From contig CM109626.1 of assembly GCA_048628825.1 (NCBI GenBank), positions 16,957,077 to 17,021,076 on the forward strand: a stretch of 64,000 bases of DNA. The letters run 5' to 3'. The stretch is from Menidia menidia (lineage: Eukaryota). Positions 15,501 to 55,515 of this stretch are shown here, piece after piece. Position 1 is the stretch's first letter; each line of letters begins with the position of its first letter. A program made the translations under genes and the position numbers. Below the pieces are notes generated by a model that did not search any database, was not told the DNA's origin, and worked only from the letters and a program-made list of their open reading frames with translations.

Positions 15501-17605
15501 AACGCCACGGGGGCCGCCTTTGTCTTCTCGGGTAATCAAAAAAATGTTTTCAAAGTGAGAATGATTCAGACGGAGAGCACCTTTCTGGCCTGGGGATGAA
15601 ATAACACGCGCGTGCTTGTGTCTTTTGAGCGATCTCCAAGCAAAACCGAATCCCCACTGACCCCGAGAGGAGCAACAATTCTCCTATGAATGAGTATATC
15701 TATCACTGTTTTCAACATGGAAATACACCCAAATCTCTGCAGTGATGTTGGGAGAACACATTTGGTCCTTTGGTCCGTAAACGGGACCTGTGACAGCATC
15801 CTGTAGAGTTGGAGGACGGAAACGTGACTCACATCGGTGTTTCCACATCAGAGCAGACGTCATTCTTTAGAGTTTTTATCTGAGAAACCACAGAGAGCTC
15901 AGTTGGGAGCAGGAGGGGCGTGCGGCACTTTCAATCCGTCATGACGCATGTTTGAGACTAAAATTTGACCCTTTTTTCTCCACTGACTTTTGTTTAGTCA
16001 ACATTACCACCCTTTAAAGTCTGAGGTAGAGAGATGACTTTGATATGGGGCATCCAATGTAAAAATAAATCACACATGACGTTTTTTGGAATATTTAACC
16101 AATTTCTTTAGATTTAAGAGGAAAATTAAACTGAAATACCAGCATAAACAACAGATTTAAAACGTGGAAGGTATCCGGTATATTAAATATAAAGCCAAGA
16201 AGTGTTTACATGAAATATTTATGTTCTACATTTGGATTTAGGTATTGTAACAGATTTAATCCTCCTTTAATCCTCCTACTGCTGCTTAGTTCTGCTTAGT
16301 GGGGTAACTTAACGTTCACAAAGATGAAATTAGAAAAACCTTTTGTTTATCTAAATTGTGTCCATGATTATCAGGGATGGTTTACATCCCTATGGTTGAT
16401 TCACTTTTTTTCAATTGAAAAAGAAATTGCAAGAAGGGGAAATAACAGATTTTTAGAAAAGCCAAAAAAAGGTGTTACACCTTAGGAAATAATTTAAAAT
16501 TCTACAGCCTAGGAAATCATTCTGAAAACTTTTTGAAAACACAACAAAATACTCTAAAAGGCTCTCAAGCAGCCTGTAGCCATTTAATCCCAAATTTGCC
16601 CCTGTATGTGTGTCACTCCGTAGACCTCTCCAACACTTTTTTTTAACTCATTTTTTTCATTTCATGTTAGTTCAATTTGGGAAAAGGGAGGTTTTCTACA
16701 ACTGTTTCCTTTGGGAAACATCAAAGTCTGAATTTTTTCATTTGGCCAACTTGAATTTAGAACAAATATGTGTAACACACCACAACTGGGGGTGGTGAAG
16801 CGCTGTAATCCCTCCATTACATCAGGAACTCCTCTCCCTCAGTAAGCACCTCTGAACTTTTCTAACTCCTTCACACCTGTTAAAGTGATGTCACGCAGAC
16901 GGCGCTATCTCACTGTGCCGAGGGACAGATAACCTCATCAGATCACTTCATCAATAAGGGCTAATTGAGGGGGAAAGGTTATCACGCGTACATGTACACC
17001 CTGGAGGAACTTCTGCGTGTTCAGCCAGACCAGGAATCACACTTGGCCCCTGTCCAAAGTCCACTCTGCTCAGTTTTTGCCGGTCTGATGCAATGACCGT
17101 CATAGTTCTTACATTTACTCTTCTTGGATAGAAAAGCGCACACATCAAAGTAATTTTCATTATATCCGAAAAGACCATTAACAACATATATGTACGAAAT
17201 ATTTCAGTTGTATCTGTTTATTAATAACCTCTTAAGTTCTGTATAATGCAGCTCATTAACCGGTTACCATATAATTCAGGTATTTGCCTACTTACTTATA
17301 CCATTTTGAGCCTGGGCATTTTCATCCAGAAGTGCAGACAAAATAGACCTGGTCATGTGACCATCACACCTCTTACATGTGTGTATTTGTTATATATTCC
17401 TCAGATTTCTGCCAAATCTAATGACTTTTGGTGCTGCAAGATTATTTTTTTTGCTAACCTGTACAGGCCCACTTGTGTACACTACTTCACATATTAAACA
17501 CGTTAAAGCAGTAAAAACATTTGACTTTTGAAAAGCCAACCATTACGAACGTCTGTGATAATTTAGTGGTAAAATGTGTAAAAATGTTTATCACAGTGGA
17601 CTCAC

Positions 17606-18499
17606 CATGCACTTATTGGGCTTTTCTCCAGAGTGAACCCTCATGTGGATGAGCAGCTTGTAGCGGGCGTTGAAGGGCTTGTGTCGGCGGATGCAGCCGG
17701 TCCAGAAACAGGCAAACTCCTCCCCTTTGCGCTGGTCGATGTGCACCTTCTCGATGTGCCTCACCAGCTCCTCCTGACAGCCGTAGGTGGCGCTGCAGTC
17801 GATCCAGTGGCACGACTGCTCCTGCTGGTCCAGCGTGGGGCTCTGCCCCAGCGGCCCGGGGGAGTGAAGAGGTGACCGGGTGCCGTCCTGACCGCTGTAA
17901 CCCTGCAGGGACTGGCCCAGATGGAAGAGTGGCCCCTGCTGGCTGCTCATCTGAACTGGCTCCCTTTTGCACGGTGTGAAATCATCTGCCGGCTCCTGTT
18001 TGATCGAGCAATACTCCTCCTGTGGATTGTGCTGCTGCTGCTGAGACACTTTGTGGTGGTTATCAGAAGCAGGCAAGCAGGAGGTCAGAGGTAAAGAGGA
18101 GGAGGAAGTGGAGAGGGAGGACGGTGGAGAAACGAAAGACGGAGACGTGGCGCAGTTGGTGAGCATGTAGGGGACGGGAAAGGAGGGCTGAGGGAAGCAG
18201 CTGAACCTCTGGGCACCGTTTCTGGGGTCTGTCTGAGCTTTGCTGGCAAAGTCCTCCACAGTCTTTTCTAGGTGGGGTGCCGCGGTCTTACAGCTGAGCA
18301 GCGAGCTGAGGTCACATCCCAGAGAGGACAGGGACAGCGAGGTCCTGGAAAGGCAGCAGAGGCCTCCTGAGCTGATGGATGGCTGGCAGAAGCCACCGGA
18401 GGACAGAGGCGCCTGAAGATCCTCGGCATCTTCAAACACGCTCCCGAAACCAGGAAGAGTCAACTGCACATCTGGAGGACCGAGGTCAGGGGGCCACAT
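17606..18499 (-). CDS. GLIS-family zinc finger protein, 5' coding exon. It carries a Ser/Pro-rich N-terminal region plus C2H2 fingers 1-2, and the first in-frame ATG is at 18499.
   Basis: The 308-aa ORF on the minus strand ends ...CHWIDCSATYGCQEELVRHIEKVHIDQRKGEEFACFWTGCIRRHKPFNARYKLLIHMRVHSGEKPNKCM, which matches GLIS1/GLIS3 finger 1-2 sequences recalled from memory. The donor is ATG|gtgagt at 17606/17605. In-frame stop codons lie upstream of codon 18517, and the first ATG is at 18499-18497. Confidence 0.7.
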
Positions 18500-20089
18500 A
18501 CCGGCCCCCACTAACACCAGCAGATTTTAATAATGGTGATTCTCCGAGAGCAACTGTAGGACTCCACCGGAAATTAAACCATCCACCACTTCTTTTAACA
18601 CTCAAAAGTAAATTGATCTGATGGATTAGAAGCAGCTGGCATCTTTTGGAGGAGCAATCTTCTGTCTTTTGTTCCCAAGTAGCCGGTCATCACTGGAAGA
18701 CTGCGGGAAAAAGACACCAAGGCAACTGAGTCCTCTTAAAAGACAGGAACACATTTCTGAATTTGTAACAGCAGTGTTTATGTTGGCTGAATTTGTTCCG
18801 TGTGTTCAAATAGCAGAAGAAAAGCTTCTGGTTTATAAAGATGGCGAATAAAAAATCCATTCTATAGAGATACACTAAAGGGTGATCACGAGAGCCTTAT
18901 ACATGCAAATAGTAAATAGTAAGTCAATAAAGTTTAACAAAGGTAAAACAAAATCAAAGACACCTATTATGGGCTGCACACGAAAAGCCCTCTGCTGTTT
19001 TTCCTCATGTCACCAGAGTCACCAGAGACATCATTTCCAACTACCTGACAGGACAAATGATCAACATCTGTCCAAAAGGACACATCTGGTCAGTGCAGAG
19101 GGGACAGGAATGCAAAGGTTTTATGAGAAGGGAAAATGCACAGATATGGAAAAATGCAAAGAAAGGATATTATCTTATGTTTTCTGAAATATTAAAGGAG
19201 ACGACTCTCTCTAACCTGTGCTGACTGGAGTATCTGTTTGACGTCAGAGTTGTAAAAGGTGTATTAAAACTGAGACATTAAGGTGACAAATCAGAGGAAA
19301 TGAGCTGAAAGAGCATCTCTGTTAGAACCCCTTTCTTTACACTATTTCTTCAAGCTGAACAGCCAGCCATCCTGATCCGTGTCCCTGACAGATTAATGCA
19401 GGTTTAACATGTGGAAACAGTTAAAAAAGAAGTTGTCCAACATTCACAAAGGATGATGCAGAAGAAGCAGATGGGCCCTCTTTTCCTTCCTGCTTTACTT
19501 GGAAGGCAACACACGGGATGCTGCAAAGTTCAGACAAAGGAATTTGCTCTTCACTCCTCATTTTCAAAGTGATACATTTTACTGATCTCCATCACCAGAC
19601 GTCTTACAACAGGAGCCACGGTGCGTTGAACTGATCCTTTTCTCCTTCAGGTGTGACACCTCGCACACTTTCCACCATAAATCAGCATAAATCGAGTCAG
19701 AATTCACTACGCCTGAACTGACCAGCAGAGAGACTCTGTAGCAGGATTTTTCTTCTGCCAATCAGGATATAAAATGGATCTAAACAACTGCATAAGATTC
19801 TTTTTGATGAAGTTTGAAGTAATTTTTCATCATTCCCGTCTTCTGCCACCTTTTTATCTTTTGCTCTACATAATGTTTAGCTTTTGTGCAGAAAGAGTCA
19901 TAATGAAACGAAACAAGACAGCTATAAAGTATCCGTGTCATTTCCTGTCAGGGAAAGACATTTTCTGCATTATATTAAAGACATTTTCTGCATTATATTA
20001 AAGGTTGCTAAGAAACTAGGCCTGCCATGCTGAGGAAATCCCTTCTTGTCTGACGGTGACGCCGTCATTTCCACTCTGACTTCAGTCGT

Positions 20090-38789: not shown

Positions 38790-39580
38790 GTAAGACTTGG
38801 ATGGAGATAACCCTGCCCAGCTTGACTGAGGTGTGTTTTCTGTCACCTCAGTATAAATCGAGAGGGGCGAAGGTCAGGACACCAGCCCACACTGAGCCCA
38901 GCCCCCAGGGTCAAACCTCCGACGACAGCCCTGCACACAGACGCGATGGAGTGAGTGATGAATGTTTAACCCCCCCGTCAGCTCCGTGGGGGGGGTGTTA
39001 CTGTTGATGCCTCTGCTGTTTTCCACATGTCCACGTCTCCATAGTAACACAAGGCTCTTCCTTGTGCCGGAGGAGAGGATTTCTAAGCTGTCGTTGGTCT
39101 CCGGGGGGTTAATTCAGTTTATCGATGAGGGCTCAATGAAAAGGGAAATTTGCCTCTTGTTTAGCGTCGCCTTTCAGAGTAGCTAGAGTAGCGACGTCAG
39201 AGGAAGTGTTGAGGGAATACCGGTGCGCGGATGTGTTCCGGTTTTATTTTGTTTTTGTTAATCAAAACCCCATTTCTGCTAATGTTAACGCTGCTGCATT
39301 TGCATGATTTCCTCTTTTTATTTAACGCCGCCGGCATCCTGCTGCAAAAGCAGAACCTGATGGTGAACTCGTCTGAGGGAAGGCAGCGGAGAATGTCACA
39401 CCTGGTTGTTTTAGGGACATTTTTGAGTTCAGCTGAGGGCTTTAATCGCCCGCTGGTGAATGATTGAGCCGACTAAAGGCCTCTGGACGCACAGCCATCG
39501 AGATTAGGTGTCTCGAACTCCTCGAGGGGCCGCTGTCCAGCAGGTCTGAGCTGTTCCCCCGCTTCCACACTCCTGATTGA

Positions 39581-40258
<678 letters not shown>

Positions 40259-40331
40259 TAGTGTGAACGTCGTGTCCGATCTCGGCCCGGACGCCGCTGG
40301 CCCCCCTCTCTGACCGCCATGTTGCTCCCCA

Positions 40332-40404
40332 GACATCAACCTGGCCGGGGAACCCAAACCGCACCGCTCCAAAACCACCAAGCGCTCAGCGGGCGACATG
40401 TACA
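40332..40404 (+). CDS. hnrnpc: hnRNP C-like, coding exon 2: (D)[23 protein letters not shown].
   Basis: The acceptor is ccccag|AC and the donor TACAG|gtcagt. The exon continues the frame and matches hnRNP [26 protein letters not shown]. Confidence 0.8.
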
Positions 40405-40498
40405 GGTCAGTGCCCCCCCCCCCCACCGGCCGCCGCCGATCCCTGCGGACGCCATGTTTCCTCACAGCCGCTCTCTCCTTTGATCTTTTTCCGTTTAG

Positions 40499-40549
40499 CA
40501 GCTCTTCCTTCGACCTGGACTACGACTTCCAGAGGGATTACTACGACAG
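40499..40549 (+). CDS. hnrnpc: hnRNP C-like, coding exon 3: [16 protein letters not shown](R).
   Basis: The acceptor is the NAGNAG motif tttagCAG, and the donor is GACAG|gtgagt at 40549/40550. The translation is identical to the hnRNP C motif [16 protein letters not shown]. Confidence 0.8.
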
Positions 40550-40626
40550 GTGAGTGCGGAGTTTCTACCGGCTCCACCCCCCATTCGTGGCGGCTCTGAA
40601 AGGCTTGTCTCTCCCTTTCGGCCCAG

Positions 40627-40800
40627 AATGTACTCGTACCCGTCCCGCGTCCCCGCCCCTCCCCCCCCCCCCCCTGTCGCGGGCCGTCATCCCGTCCAAG
40701 CGCCCGCGGGTCAGCCTGAGCGGGGGCAGCAGCCGGCGCACCAAAAGCAGCTTCTCCTCGTCCTCCAAGAGCAGCCAGAGGACCTCATCGTCCAGAGCAA
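40627..40800 (+). CDS. hnrnpc: hnRNP C-like, coding exon 4: (R)MYSYPSRVPAPPPPPP / LSRAVIPSKRPRVSLSGGSSRRTKSSFSSSSKSSQRTSSSRA. As written, the reading frame is broken by one base inside the C14 run at 40661-40674.
   Basis: Both halves match hnRNP C ([48 protein letters not shown]) but lie in different frames. Thirteen or sixteen Cs would restore the frame. The acceptor is cccag|A and the donor GCAA|gtgggt. Confidence 0.7.
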
Positions 40801-41304
40801 GTGGGTGCCCACAACGTAGAGAGCTTAACTCTCATTTCATCCTTCTCAGAAACTCAATGATCATAAAAAATAAACGCAGAAAGCCATAAGCAAACACTAA
40901 ACCTTCAATGAGTCATAAATACATTTTACTTAAAGGACAAAAAACTTGTCAAAAGTCACTTTAGTCTTTACTTTCTGTCTTTCATTATTCACAAACTTCA
41001 TTCAGATTTTATCAGTAAAACTGAACTGACTCTTTTGTTTACAGACAAAACCCGAGAAATCGATTAAACCAGAAAAACTCCCCACTTGCACCCACCAGCC
41101 AGAGCACAAAGCTCTAAACAGAATTCTGTTTATTAACCAGTTTTTACAAAAACAGGCTAATTTGACTCTAAGTTTCATTTGAATTATTATTTTTTTGCTT
41201 CCTCCCAAATGTCTGATGGGAAAAGTTCCTTAGTCTCCTCTGAGAAACCGGTTCAGAGTCCGGGTGTGTCGGTTGTACTGAGGATGATGCGTTTTAGAGT
41301 CTGA

Positions 41305-41332
41305 CCCCCCCCCCCCCCCCCCCCCCCCCCCC
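41305..41332. repeat. C28 homopolymer directly 5' of the exon 5 acceptor of hnrnpc.
   Basis: Read directly from the sequence. Confidence 0.9.
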
Positions 41333-41344
41333 GTGTCCCTGCAG

Positions 41345-41458
41345 TGAGAGTGGACGAGCTGCAGACCATCAAGCGGGAGCTGAGCCAGATCAAAAACAAA
41401 GTGGACGACCTGCTGGACAGCCTGGAGCGCATGGAGAAGGACCACAGCAAGAAGTCGG
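41345..41458 (+). CDS. hnrnpc: hnRNP C-like, coding exon 5 (coiled-coil/bZLM): (M/V)RVDELQTIKRELSQIKNKVDDLLDSLERMEKDHSKKS.
   Basis: The acceptor is ccctgcag|TG, preceded by a C28 homopolymer, and the donor is TCGG|gtaaga. The translation is similar to hnRNP [35 protein letters not shown]. Confidence 0.8.
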
Positions 41459-41544
41459 GTAAGAGGCCGCCCGGCGCCGCCTGACCGCCCCCCCGTTGGT
41501 CCGGCGGGTCGGGGGCTGACCGCCGGCGCCCGTTTTGCCCGCAG

Positions 41545-41702
41545 CTAAGAACGCAAAACCGGAGCCGGGAGAGGTGACGTCGCCCCCACACTCCAGCAAC
41601 AAGAAGGACGAGGGCCTGAAGCGGGAGAGGGAGAGCCAGGACATGAACGACTCGGACGAGGAGGAGGAGGAAGAGGAGGGAGACCTGCTGGAGGAGGAGG
41701 AG
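41545..41702 (+). CDS. hnrnpc: hnRNP C-like, coding exon 6 (acidic region): AKNAKPEPGEVTSPPHSSNKKDEGLKRERESQDMNDSDEEEEEEEGDLLEEEE.
   Basis: The acceptor is gcccgcag|CT and the donor GAGGAG|gtgaga. The frame is anchored by ORF 41535..41792. Confidence 0.85.
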
Positions 41703-41788
41703 GTGAGATCTGAGGAAGCCCGAAGCGCCGCCGTCCCGCCGGGAGACGAGCCCGACAACAGCCTGACGCTCTGCTTTTGTTTTTATAG

Positions 41789-41899
41789 GTGAAGAGCCAA
41801 GAGCGGGAGGATGAAGAGGAGGAGGAGGAAGAGGAGGGGGAGCACGTGGAGGGAGACGAGGAAGAGGCGGACAGCGTGAACGGCGACGACGACTCATAG
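41789..41899 (+). CDS. hnrnpc: hnRNP C-like, last coding exon: VKSQEREDEEEEEEEEGEHVEGDEEEADSVNGDDDS, stop TAG at 41897-41899.
   Basis: The acceptor is ttttatag|GTG. The acidic C-terminus ends ...DDDS, like hnRNP C (...GEDDS). Confidence 0.8.
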   Translation: MKSQEREDEEEEEEEEGEHVEGDEEEADSVNGDDDS

Positions 41900-42016
41900 A
41901 CCGGAGCCGCCCCCCCCCCCCCCGGAGCTCGGACTCCTCTTTTAAACCCTCATGTTGTAGATAGAAAGTCAAACGTACAAACACAAGCATGGCGCGCCCT
42001 CTGTCACACACACACA

Positions 42017-42055
42017 CCCCCCCCCCCCCCCAAAGGTCCCCCCCCCCCCCCCCCC
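42017..42055. repeat. Two C-homopolymers (C15 and C18) separated by aaaggt, in the hnrnpc 3'UTR.
   Basis: Read directly from the sequence. Confidence 0.9.
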
Positions 42056-52541: not shown

Positions 52542-54164
52542 CTAAATGTTCAGGCCCTCCTCCCGCAGCGCGTCTGACTGGAGGCGGGATCCTCTCCGGC
52601 TGGGCCGGTGTTCCCTGTCGCTGCCCTTCCTCCCGGGCCTCTCCTCCTCCTCCCCTCCTGCTGACTCAAACACCCTCCTGGCGCTCTCCACCCTGCTGCC
52701 CTGTCTCCCCCCTTCCCTCTCCCTGGGCTCCTGGTCCCTCCTGTGGTGACTCCTCTCCGATTCCCTGTCCGTCTCCCTCCTCGTCACCCCCTCGGGACCC
52801 CGGTGGGACTCCTTCTTCCTCCTTGTGCTTCCTTGATGCTCGCTTTCTGTCCCCTTGCTTCCTTGTTTCTCCTCTCTGCTCCTCACCATCTCTGCTCTCC
52901 AGTCTTTTACTCCCCTGTCCTCCTCTCCTTTTCTCCCCCAGCACTCCGACCGGTCCCCTCTGTCTTTGTGGCGGCTCTTCCTCTCCTCATCTGGCTCTCT
53001 CGCTTTATTTCTGTCTCCTCTCTCTCCGTCTTTGCTGCTCCTGCTGCTGCTGTGCCTCCTGGTATGCTCACCTTGCACCCCCTGCTCTTGTTTCCCCTCC
53101 ATCTTCATCCCCCCTCCCTCCTCCCGGCTGCTTCTTTTCCTCTCGCTTTCCTTCTTCTCCCGCGCTGCCTGGGATTTTGAACTCCGGTCATCCTGTTTTG
53201 AATCTCCTGATCTGCTCTGAGCTTCTTCCTTCTCCTTCTTATTGCTCTCCTTCTCCTTCCAGACAGCCGTTCTCTTTGCTCCAGAGTCTTCTTTGGCCTT
53301 TTCGTGCTTACTCTCCTGTTTCTTGTCTTTTTCAGCAGCCAGACGGTTCTCACTTTCTTTGTCTCTCTTGGTTCCTTTCTGAGACTCTCCTGCTATAATG
53401 TCTTTGCTGCTTTTGTTACTGGTGTCATTTTTCTGCTTCTGCTTCTCGTCGGGAATCTTCTGTAGCTTCCCTCCTTCCTCTGCGTTGGTTTCCATTTTCT
53501 CCTGTTTCTCCTGTTTCTCCTTCTTTTCCTCCTGCTCTCCTTTCTCCTTCGTGCTCTTCTCCTCCTTTTTGTCCTTCTTCAGTTTGAAAAGTCCCTTCTC
53601 CGTCTCTTTTTTCTTCTGCGGCTCCACCTCCTCCTTCTTGTCCAGCTTCTCCTCCAGGAGGTCCAGCTCCTGCTCCAGCTCAGCCAGCTTCTTTGGGTCA
53701 GACTCCAAATCGTCGTCCACCTCAACCTCCACCTCCTCGATCTCCTCGTACTCCTCCACCTCGATGCCGTCCATGGTCTTCTGCAGCTGCGTCTTCACCT
53801 TGTTCAGCTCCAGGAGGCCGTCCTGGAGGTCTTTGCACACCTCTCTGATCTTGCCAGCAAACTTGGTTTTGGCGCCCTTTCGGAGCTCGTGGGAGTCCTT
53901 GGCGAGGAAGAAAACGTCCAGAGCCAAGAAGAGGGCGGACATGACACCTGTGGTGACGCTGATGGCCTGGGCGGCCTTGGCGGCGCCGCCCGCGGCGCCC
54001 AGAACCTGCACGGTGCTGATGAGCTTGTCGGTGTTGATCATCAGGGCTTTTCCCGCCCGGCCTCCCTCCTTCATCACGTGCTTGATGTTGTGGTTCATGG
54101 CCTTTTTGGCAGCACTCTGAGAGTACTTCTCAAAATCCCACTCCTGTAGGGTGTCCATACCTTC
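52542..54164 (-). CDS. Apolipoprotein-L domain protein, terminal exon. It encodes the C-terminal APOL region (EGMDTLQEWDFEKYSQSAAKKAMNHNIKHVMKEGGRAGKALMINTDKLISTVQVLGAAGGAAKAAQAISVTTGVMSALFLALDVFFLAKDSHELRKGAKTKFAGKIREVCKDLQDGLLELNKVKTQLQ), then about 400 aa of K/E/R/D/S-rich low-complexity tail, ending at stop 52542-52544.
   Basis: The acceptor is ctctgcag|GAAGGTATG at 54165/54164, in phase 0 with the previous exon. The first 130 aa resemble the APOL1 C-terminus ([61 protein letters not shown]). The tail ORF is uninterrupted, but it lies in a pure purine tract where stop codons are rare, so its reality as coding sequence is uncertain. Confidence 0.65.
   Translation of the reverse strand, partial: EGMDTLQEWDFEKYSQSAAKKAMNHNIKHVMKEGGRAGKALMINTDKLISTVQVLGAAGGAAKAAQAISVTTGVMSALFLALDVFFLAKDSHELRKGAKTKFAGKIREVCKDLQDGLLELNKVKTQLQKTMDGIEVEEYEEIEEVEVEVDDDLESDPKKLAELEQELDLLEEKLDKKEEVEPQKKKETEKGLFKLKKDKKEEKSTKEKGEQEEKKEKQEKQEKMETNAEEGGKLQKIPDEKQKQKNDTSNKSSKDIIAGESQKGTKRDKESENRLAAEKDKKQESKHEKAKEDSGAKRTAVWKEKESNKKEKEEAQSRSGDSKQDDRSSKSQAAREKKESERKRSSREEGGGMKMEGKQEQGVQGEHTRRHSSSRSSKDGERGDRNKAREPDEERKSRHKDRGDRSECWGRKGEEDRGVKDWRAEMVRSREEKQGSKGTESEHQGSTRRKKESHRGPEGVTRRETDRESERSHHRRDQEPREREGGRQGSRVESARRVFESAGGEEEERPGRKGSDREHRPSRRGSRLQSDALREEGLNI
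52600..53650. repeat. Strand-asymmetric polypurine/polypyrimidine tract of about 1 kb. The plus strand is almost exclusively C/T, the minus strand A/G. It overlaps the tail of the APOL terminal exon.
   Basis: Long CT-only stretches (ctcctcc, tctcc, cttcct...) occur on the plus strand. ORFs longer than 100 codons are open on both strands, because stop codons are absent from both purine-only and pyrimidine-only sequence. Confidence 0.8.
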
Positions 54165-54855
54165 CTGCAGAGCGGAGACAGCAGATCAGGGTCAGAGCTG
54201 CCTCTGGGAAGTGATCTCCACCTTTCACATTTTTGTAAACCAATGGAGTAAAACTTGTCGGAAAATAATGTAATTAAACAATTTAAAGGTTCACGTCTCC
54301 CTGAAAGAGGCAGGAAACATCTGTAACCAGGGGGTGATAGATTGCTGTGTTTTCATTTCAACTCTTGAATCATCTCTAAAATGTCCTCCAACAGGATTAT
54401 CTAAACATTGGTTTTGGTTATGTTCTTTTCTCAGAAAACTCCATCTGAAACATCAGAGATTTCCCATGCAGCACAGAGGAAACACCCGTTGTCTTCCAAT
54501 ATAATCATGCATAGAAGAAAACTGCTATCATGTCCAGTGGTGCTGTCCAGCCCAGCATGTCCAGACTGAGGTCATTGTGTTCTGTGATAACGCCGACAAA
54601 CGAAGACGTACACATAGAACCAGGAGGTATAACAAAAATACCACCAACTGCCTGGAACGTTCTTGTTTCTAACAACAACAACGCCCGATATCAACGGTTA
54701 ATTCTGATTGTAACACTCATTTTTACCGGAAACGCATAATCTCACTCAGATTTCAGTTACAGTAAGGGCCTGAAAGCATCTTTAAACATGATAATTTTAG
54801 TTTTAATAGACCTGTTTTTTTCCCTCTCTAGTGACAAAGTCCCCCCCCCTCTCAC

Positions 54856-55270
54856 CTGAACAAACTCCAGACACTCCCTGATGTCTTTGATCTCCTCCTG
54901 GTAGCCCTGGATCATCTTCTCCACCTTTTTGCGGTCCATGTTGGAGTGCACCGTGTCGGTGATGTTGGCCGTGGCCGACGCGATGCTGCCGGCCGTGGCC
55001 ACTCTGATCCCCACCGCTGTGACTATGATGGAGGCCCCGAAGGTGAAAGGGGCCAGGATGAGCCCGGTGATGGTGGCCACGCTGCCCGCCACGCTGGCCA
55101 CGCCTCCGCCCACCGCCGCCGTCACCGTCCTCTTGTGGAACTGGTCGGCGGCGTCGGCCAGAGACAGAAGCTCCAGGATGCGCTGCTGCAAGGACGCCCC
55201 CCGCTGGTTGAAAAGACGCACAAACAGTCGGGCGGCCATGTAGACTCGATCCGCCGCCTGCTCCATCGCC
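54856..55270 (-). CDS. Apolipoprotein-L domain protein (APOL/APOLD1-like), exon encoding the membrane-hairpin region: (R)AMEQAADRVYMAARLFVRLFNQRGASLQQRILELLSLADAADQFHKRTVTAAVGGGVASVAGSVATITGLILAPFTFGASIIVTAVGIRVATAGSIASATANITDTVHSNMDRKKVEKMIQGYQEEIKDIRECLEFVQ.
   Basis: The exon matches the human APOL1 membrane-addressing region ([48 protein letters not shown]...) and APOLD1 (...LVSAVGLGVATAGGAVTITSD...EILSCLEFF), both recalled from memory. The acceptor is tctctgcag|G at 55271/55270 and the donor CAG|gtgaga at 54856/54855, anchored by ORF 54757..55290. An ATG at 55266 is an alternative start. Confidence 0.8.
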
Positions 55271-55515
55271 CTGCAGAGACACCAAACCACGACTTAGACA
55301 GAAGGCACTTTACCCAAACATTTCAGAACCCAGGTACATTTCCCCAGGTAATTAGCATTAAAATTAAGAAACTATATGTACATTTCCTCATCATCTTCCT
55401 GGAAATTGGAGCTCTCAGTCCACTCAGTCCAACCTGGAAAACAGCAACACAACAAGACGATCAGTAAACGGAGATTTAAATGTTTCACTTAAGCACGAAC
55501 GTGTAAAAGCACGAC

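Follow-up and report, generated by a model that had tools for sequence, protein, structure and literature searches.

The frameshifted C14 run in the hnrnpc gene of Menidia menidia is most probably a homopolymer-length error of the assembly

In a 64-kb stretch of the Menidia menidia genome (hereafter the window), the gene for heterogeneous nuclear ribonucleoprotein C (hnrnpc) appears to be broken by a single base, and the question that this locus raises is whether the lesion belongs to the animal or to the assembly. Positions 40661-40674 hold exactly 14 Cs, bounded by a T at 40660 and a T at 40675, inside a proline-coding tract. An earlier note on the window had claimed that this run shifts the reading frame by one base, and the count of Cs and the frame translation agree on that point. 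The hnrnpc gene is otherwise free of stops, shifts and splice defects, the C14 run being its sole lesion.

The gene was rebuilt on the + strand as eight exons and seven introns, with GT-AG boundaries in all seven, and its features are as follows.

38946-38950, + strand: end of exon 1, ATGGA followed by the donor gtgagt; source of the 'MD' start in the NCBI model
39733-40001, + strand: exon 2, with the internal ATG at 39758 and most of the RRM; 100% identity with the second assembly (locus L001, see below)
40333-40405, + strand: exon 3, AG acceptor and GT donor
40499-40549, + strand: exon 4, whose acceptor is a tag/cag NAGNAG pair
40627-40800, + strand: exon 5, with the C run inside; MYSYPSRVPAPPPPP, the C run, LSRAVIPSKRPRVS…, a basic segment with PSKRPRV, and …SSSRA
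40661-40674, + strand: C14 homopolymer in the proline tract (CCT plus CCC codons), one base above the in-frame length of 13
41345-41458, + strand: exon 6, encoding MRVDELQTIKRELSQIKNKVDDLLDSLERMEKDHSKKS; matches the hnRNP C tetramerisation helix and is out of frame under the literal C14
41545-41702, + strand: exon 7, AKNAKPEPGEV… and an acidic tract in the repaired frame; in the literal C14 frame a TAA is the second codon
41789-41899, + strand: exon 8, acidic C-terminus …SVNGDDDS and TAG stop

The gene is compact, with eight exons in about 3 kb, and is probably the single hnRNP C gene in M. menidia. The earlier note had placed the run in exon 4, which is right when coding exons are counted from the ATG at 39758, but the exon becomes the fifth when the upstream ATG exon of the NCBI model (38946-38950) is included. 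A TATAAA sequence lies at roughly 38853, about 90 nt 5' of the ATG of exon 1, and a (GT)n microsatellite of about 14 units (39696-39724) stands directly 5' of the exon 2 acceptor (39733).

A search of the protein collection with the repaired protein returned 2,837 matches. The top match, at 100% identity, was 'LOW QUALITY PROTEIN: heterogeneous nuclear ribonucleoproteins C1/C2 [Menidia menidia]' (P0001, 317 aa), followed at 99% by "unnamed protein product [Menidia menidia]" (P0002, 307 aa); the best 120 of the 2,837 also comprised 118 non-Menidia fish proteins, which share 81-93% identity with it and almost all bear the name hnRNP C or C-like. Translation of the eight window exons minus one C gives exactly P0001, and because a one-C deletion yields identity over 317 aa to a database protein, the hnRNP C match is not a matter of chance. 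NCBI attaches the label 'LOW QUALITY PROTEIN' to models in which it has edited the CDS away from the genomic sequence. As the exons minus one C equal P0001, the window is the sequence that NCBI annotated, with one base removed at the run by the annotators, and the miscount is in effect already recognised and compensated in the public annotation.

At its N-terminus the protein has one RRM, of hnRNP C type (Pfam RRM_1, E 5e-13; PDB 2mxy, the hnRNP C1/C2 RRM, E 7.7e-50), which also matches the RALY structure PDB 1wf1 (E 1.4e-43). In the repaired protein, residues 196-223, which follow the basic region, match the tetramerisation helix (PDB 1txp, 28 aa, E 4e-4), a match that depends on a run of 13 or 16 Cs. 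Similarity to vertebrate hnRNP C is collinear over the full length, acidic C-terminus included, and the exon layout follows the protein block by block. The conserved block MYSYP-(A/S)RVP-polyPro-(I/L)-(A/S)-RAV-(V/I)-PSKR is one that we take to be common to the Menidia protein and human hnRNP C. To judge from its sequence, this is an ordinary orthologue of vertebrate hnRNP C, every family feature that was looked for being present.

The frame that arrives from the preceding exon (…DYYDR) reads MYSYPSRVPAPPPPPP up to the C run. Beyond the 14 Cs this incoming frame continues as VAGRHPVQAPAGQPERG…, without hnRNP C similarity, and it is the next frame 3' of the run that gives the hnRNP C sequence LSRAVIPSKRPRVSLSGGSSRRTKSSFSSSSKSSQRTSSSRA, reaching the GT donor at the exon end (40800) in phase with the next exon, MRVDELQTIKRELSQIK. 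The observation of the earlier note that MYSYPSRVPAPPPPP precedes the run, while LSRAVIPSKRPRVS follows it in the +1 frame and joins the next exon in the correct phase, was reproduced. Spliced and read from the ATG at 39758, the C14 CDS measures 925 nt (one more than a multiple of three), and the premature stop falls at codon 220 from that ATG or codon 230 from the upstream one. A run of 13 Cs restores 307 aa and one of 16 Cs 308 aa, as had been proposed, and the frame stays broken with 12, 15 or 17 Cs. The helix-matching segment (1txp, residues 196-223) would be destroyed if the shift were real, since it lies downstream of the run.

Rescue of the literal frame by alternative splicing was considered and rejected, as the conserved sequence on either side of the run belongs to a single exon and the only alternative acceptor seen, that of exon 4, moves the boundary by 3 nt. 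This tandem tag/cag acceptor (within 40493-40501) would account for the SSSS and SSS forms of the two protein models: P0001 reads DMYSSSSFD and P0002 DMYSSSFD, one serine apart, a difference consistent with alternative use of the two AGs.

Evidence from another haplotype came from a second M. menidia assembly, GCA_907169785.1, an ENA-submitted, gap-containing assembly in which the comparison locus (L001, scaffold CAJRST010007779.1) encodes P0002. A comparison of 231 bases (window 40600-40830) shows a single difference between the two sequences, the run being 13 Cs long in L001 (L001 5881-5893); within the 174 nt of exon 5, the extra C is the sole difference. The C13 run of L001 gives APPPPPL and an intact ORF of 307 aa (P0002). 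Across the 12 kb shared with the window, identity is about 97%, with about 55 indels in both directions, a divergence that agrees with the heterozygosity of the species (1.3-1.8%) and with its between-population divergence of 2.2% (PMC8214408). Because of this divergence of roughly 3%, and because the window spans runs where GCA_907169785.1 has N gaps, the window derives from another assembly; L001 is a different haplotype and therefore truly independent evidence. The published silverside reference was built from 10x/Illumina, Chicago and Hi-C data (PMC8214408; ENA PRJEB43421), and its re-anchored v2 is GCA_965154125.1 (PMC12046131). GCA_907169785.1 is very probably the 10x/Illumina plus Hi-C Georgia assembly of Tigano et al. 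2021 (PMC8214408, ENA PRJEB43421), a paper in which the accession is not printed. About 138 bp of AT-rich intron 5 sequence (window 41081-41218) are missing from L001 (6295-6297), reflecting either an insertion/deletion polymorphism or an assembly difference.

Comparison of the two haplotypes also bears on whether the gene is under constraint. Exon 2 is 100% identical between the window and L001, against 90-95% in the flanking introns. Ten coding substitutions separate the haplotypes, eight synonymous and two non-synonymous; seven lie 3' of the run, and five of these seven are synonymous in the hnRNP C frame. The sole other coding indel is an in-frame GAG in a poly-Glu tract. This substitution pattern points to purifying selection on the downstream frame in both haplotypes, and such apparent selection excludes an old pseudogene.

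The proline tract was then compared at the DNA level in Xenentodon cancila, in Echeneis naucrates and in a third fish, represented by three Logan transcript contigs (SRR17317236-8). All have four prolines in frame, with a longest C run of 5-6, encoded by the codon sets CCT CCC CCT CCT, CCC CCA CCC CCT or CCC CCT CCC CCC. Fish proteins vary in the length of the tract, which counts 3 to 6 or more prolines and is always in frame, and Odontesthes protein has five prolines too. Among the species whose DNA was examined, the pure C13 run is confined to M. menidia; that the proline codons became one unbroken C homopolymer is a Menidia-specific and mildly notable piece of biology.

The run does not stand isolated in the window. 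The 64 kb contain eight C/G runs of 12 nt or more, seven of which fall inside 1.9 kb (40226-42055), in and just past hnrnpc, and six of these seven are runs of C on the sense strand. Besides the coding C14, they are the following.

40226-40251: G26 in the window, G10 plus G17 in L001
40413-40424: C12 in the window, C13 in L001
41305-41332: C28 in the window, C8 in L001
41910-41923: C14, after the stop codon
42017-42031: C15, after the stop codon
42038-42055: C18, after the stop codon

The last three presumably lie in the 3' UTR; past the stop codon the C14 of the window contrasts with a C33, an N gap and a C23 in L001. None of the seven clustered runs was found in the Xenentodon or Echeneis orthologues. 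The C/G runs at hnrnpc are thus either very hard to size or very unstable, and for that reason a single extra C in the coding run is unremarkable. The C28 run ends twelve bases 5' of the exon 6 AG acceptor (41345), at the position of the polypyrimidine tract, where L001 has only 'cccccatt' and C8 (L001 6391-6398), so that the splice-site context of exon 6 differs greatly between the haplotypes or assemblies.

Other putative coding sequences are visible elsewhere in the window. Two long ORFs on the minus strand (52545-54158 and 54760-55290) match Pfam ApoL (apolipoprotein L; E 2.5e-8 and 5.7e-21, respectively). The former continues as a low-complexity tail of about 400 aa, rich in Lys, Glu, Arg and Ser; this tail explains the strong AT and GC skew at 52-54 kb. 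A 308-aa ORF, also on the minus strand (17594-18517), has a C2H2 zinc-finger motif at its end (Pfam zf-C2H2_15, E 1e-17) and is probably an exon of a gene for a zinc-finger transcription factor, a neighbour of hnrnpc.

Database searches were also carried out for the shifted product and for other Menidia alleles. With the tail that the literal C14 would encode, a search of 5.8 billion proteins revealed no protein with the shifted exon-5 segment; its two matches were both spurious out-of-frame ORFs over exon 6 from other fishes. The genomic ORF that spans the run (window 40554-40889), searched against the protein collection, gave exon-level matches from other fishes only and no ORF from a Menidia read set. 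These two null searches amount to weak negative evidence only, since Menidia read assemblies are apparently absent across exon 5.

How should the fourteenth C then be read? Long mononucleotide runs are hotspots of slippage, and the extra base could be a real +1 slippage allele, of germline (and then probably heterozygous) or somatic origin, in a coding poly-C of high mutability, in which case the assembler would have picked a genuine null allele. The C/G runs in and near the gene do differ between assemblies both ways, in-frame variation of the proline tract from 3 to 6 or more fits repeated slippage at the site, and the species is exceptionally polymorphic (PMC8214408). We nevertheless consider a real allele unlikely: the shift would remove the helix-matching segment and the acidic tail of a highly conserved protein, the haplotype is otherwise unblemished and apparently constrained, and GCA_907169785.1 keeps the frame. 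The best 120 of the 2,837 matches include a single M. menidia locus, and homopolymer miscalls are a priori much commoner than a null allele that ends up on the sole reference haplotype. Of the alternative raised in the earlier note, a genuine slippage-prone site, one part survives, as the pure C tract is lineage-specific and the neighbouring C/G runs vary between assemblies; a real allele in the sequenced fish is reduced to a minor rival. The broader proposition that a hypermutable C tract of Menidia segregates null frameshift alleles in a hyperdiverse wild population or, less likely, that polymerase slippage corrects the run at the RNA level, is in our estimate highly improbable. A genuine fourteenth C would be of minor interest, as a null allele in a coding microsatellite peculiar to the lineage, within the gene of an RNA-binding protein that is otherwise highly conserved.

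Two further explanations accept the 14 Cs at face value. A decaying pseudogene or redundant duplicate, with the frameshift as its first disabling mutation, would present the disrupted literal CDS and the premature stop at codon 220 that are seen here, but it is scarcely credible for a locus with one lesion, seven GT-AG introns and their splice sites kept, and eight synonymous against two non-synonymous changes. The contrast between an exon 2 without differences and introns at 90-95%, the intact locus in GCA_907169785.1 and the absence of a second M. menidia hnRNP C locus among the best 120 matches speak in the same direction. Alternatively, the 14 Cs might be true and the frame mended in expression, either because RNA polymerase II slips on the C run or because ribosomes shift frame at the CCC codons. 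Formally, slippage could occur at a homopolymer, and the frame beyond the run is unbroken, but a programmed event would be expected to be conserved. The second M. menidia assembly, with its C13, is in frame, and so are Xenentodon, Echeneis and the three transcript contigs, which have interrupted codons and C runs of 5-6. A conserved housekeeping gene would hardly be expected to depend on a broken frame; mending in expression has, in our opinion, next to no chance of being correct.

We therefore return to the assembly. Miscalls of homopolymer length are the commonest residual error at long homopolymers, and it is very likely that the fourteenth C is a +1 error of this kind and that the true length is 13; we infer that sequencing or assembly, and not the DNA of the fish, is the source of the extra base. 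In M. menidia, CCC codons make up nearly the whole of the short proline tract and so form a pure C homopolymer, in which the true in-frame run would be 13 (CCT CCC CCC CCC CCC C/TG, giving A-P5-L), and the consensus count of 14 would have arisen as a +1 miscall during sequencing or consensus polishing. The frameshift would then be an artefact, and the fish would make a normal hnRNP C of 307/317 aa with RRM, basic segment, tetramerisation helix and acidic tail. What is found at the locus is a one-base change in a long mononucleotide run as the sole defect of the gene, together with the in-frame length in an independent sequence of the same species (GCA_907169785.1, C13). The C13 of L001 comes from a roughly 3% divergent haplotype, so it establishes a working allele and does not speak for the sequenced individual; real indel polymorphism is, moreover, abundant in a species with 1.3-1.8% heterozygosity (PMC8214408). 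The preference of the earlier note for an assembly error is nonetheless strengthened by the C13 run with an intact 307-aa ORF in the independent assembly, by the identity of the LOW QUALITY NCBI protein to the window translation minus one C, and by the combination of an otherwise lesion-free gene, a conserved downstream frame and no database protein with the shifted exon-5 tail. The frameshift is almost certainly not a biological feature, and belongs to the familiar class of homopolymer indel errors.

The practical consequence is one of quality control only: literal use of this assembly would lead to hnrnpc being miscalled as truncated in the Atlantic silverside. The C14 run of hnrnpc is a clean case of a coding frameshift to be repaired rather than interpreted, and population indel calls at this locus, with its many long C/G runs, are untrustworthy.

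Compared with known systems, the locus most closely resembles the homopolymer consensus errors patched by NCBI, with which it shares a one-base change in a long run of a conserved and otherwise intact gene, a frame restored by independent sequence, and a LOW QUALITY protein equal to the genome minus one base; no difference from this class was found. Coding poly-C/G or poly-A tracts are hit by slippage in mismatch-repair-deficient cells. With coding mononucleotide microsatellites that have slippage frameshift alleles, hnrnpc shares a long pure coding run in which a change of ±1 truncates the product, and length-variable neighbouring runs; it differs in that the only independent observation is in frame, a frameshifted allele in an animal being without support here. 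The encoded protein resembles vertebrate hnRNP C1/C2 (HNRNPC, of the RALY/hnRNP C family) in its RRM, its 1txp-matching segment and its acidic tail, and differs in the tract itself, where Menidia encodes five prolines as an uninterrupted C13 whereas three other fishes encode four with mixed CCT/CCA/CCC codons.
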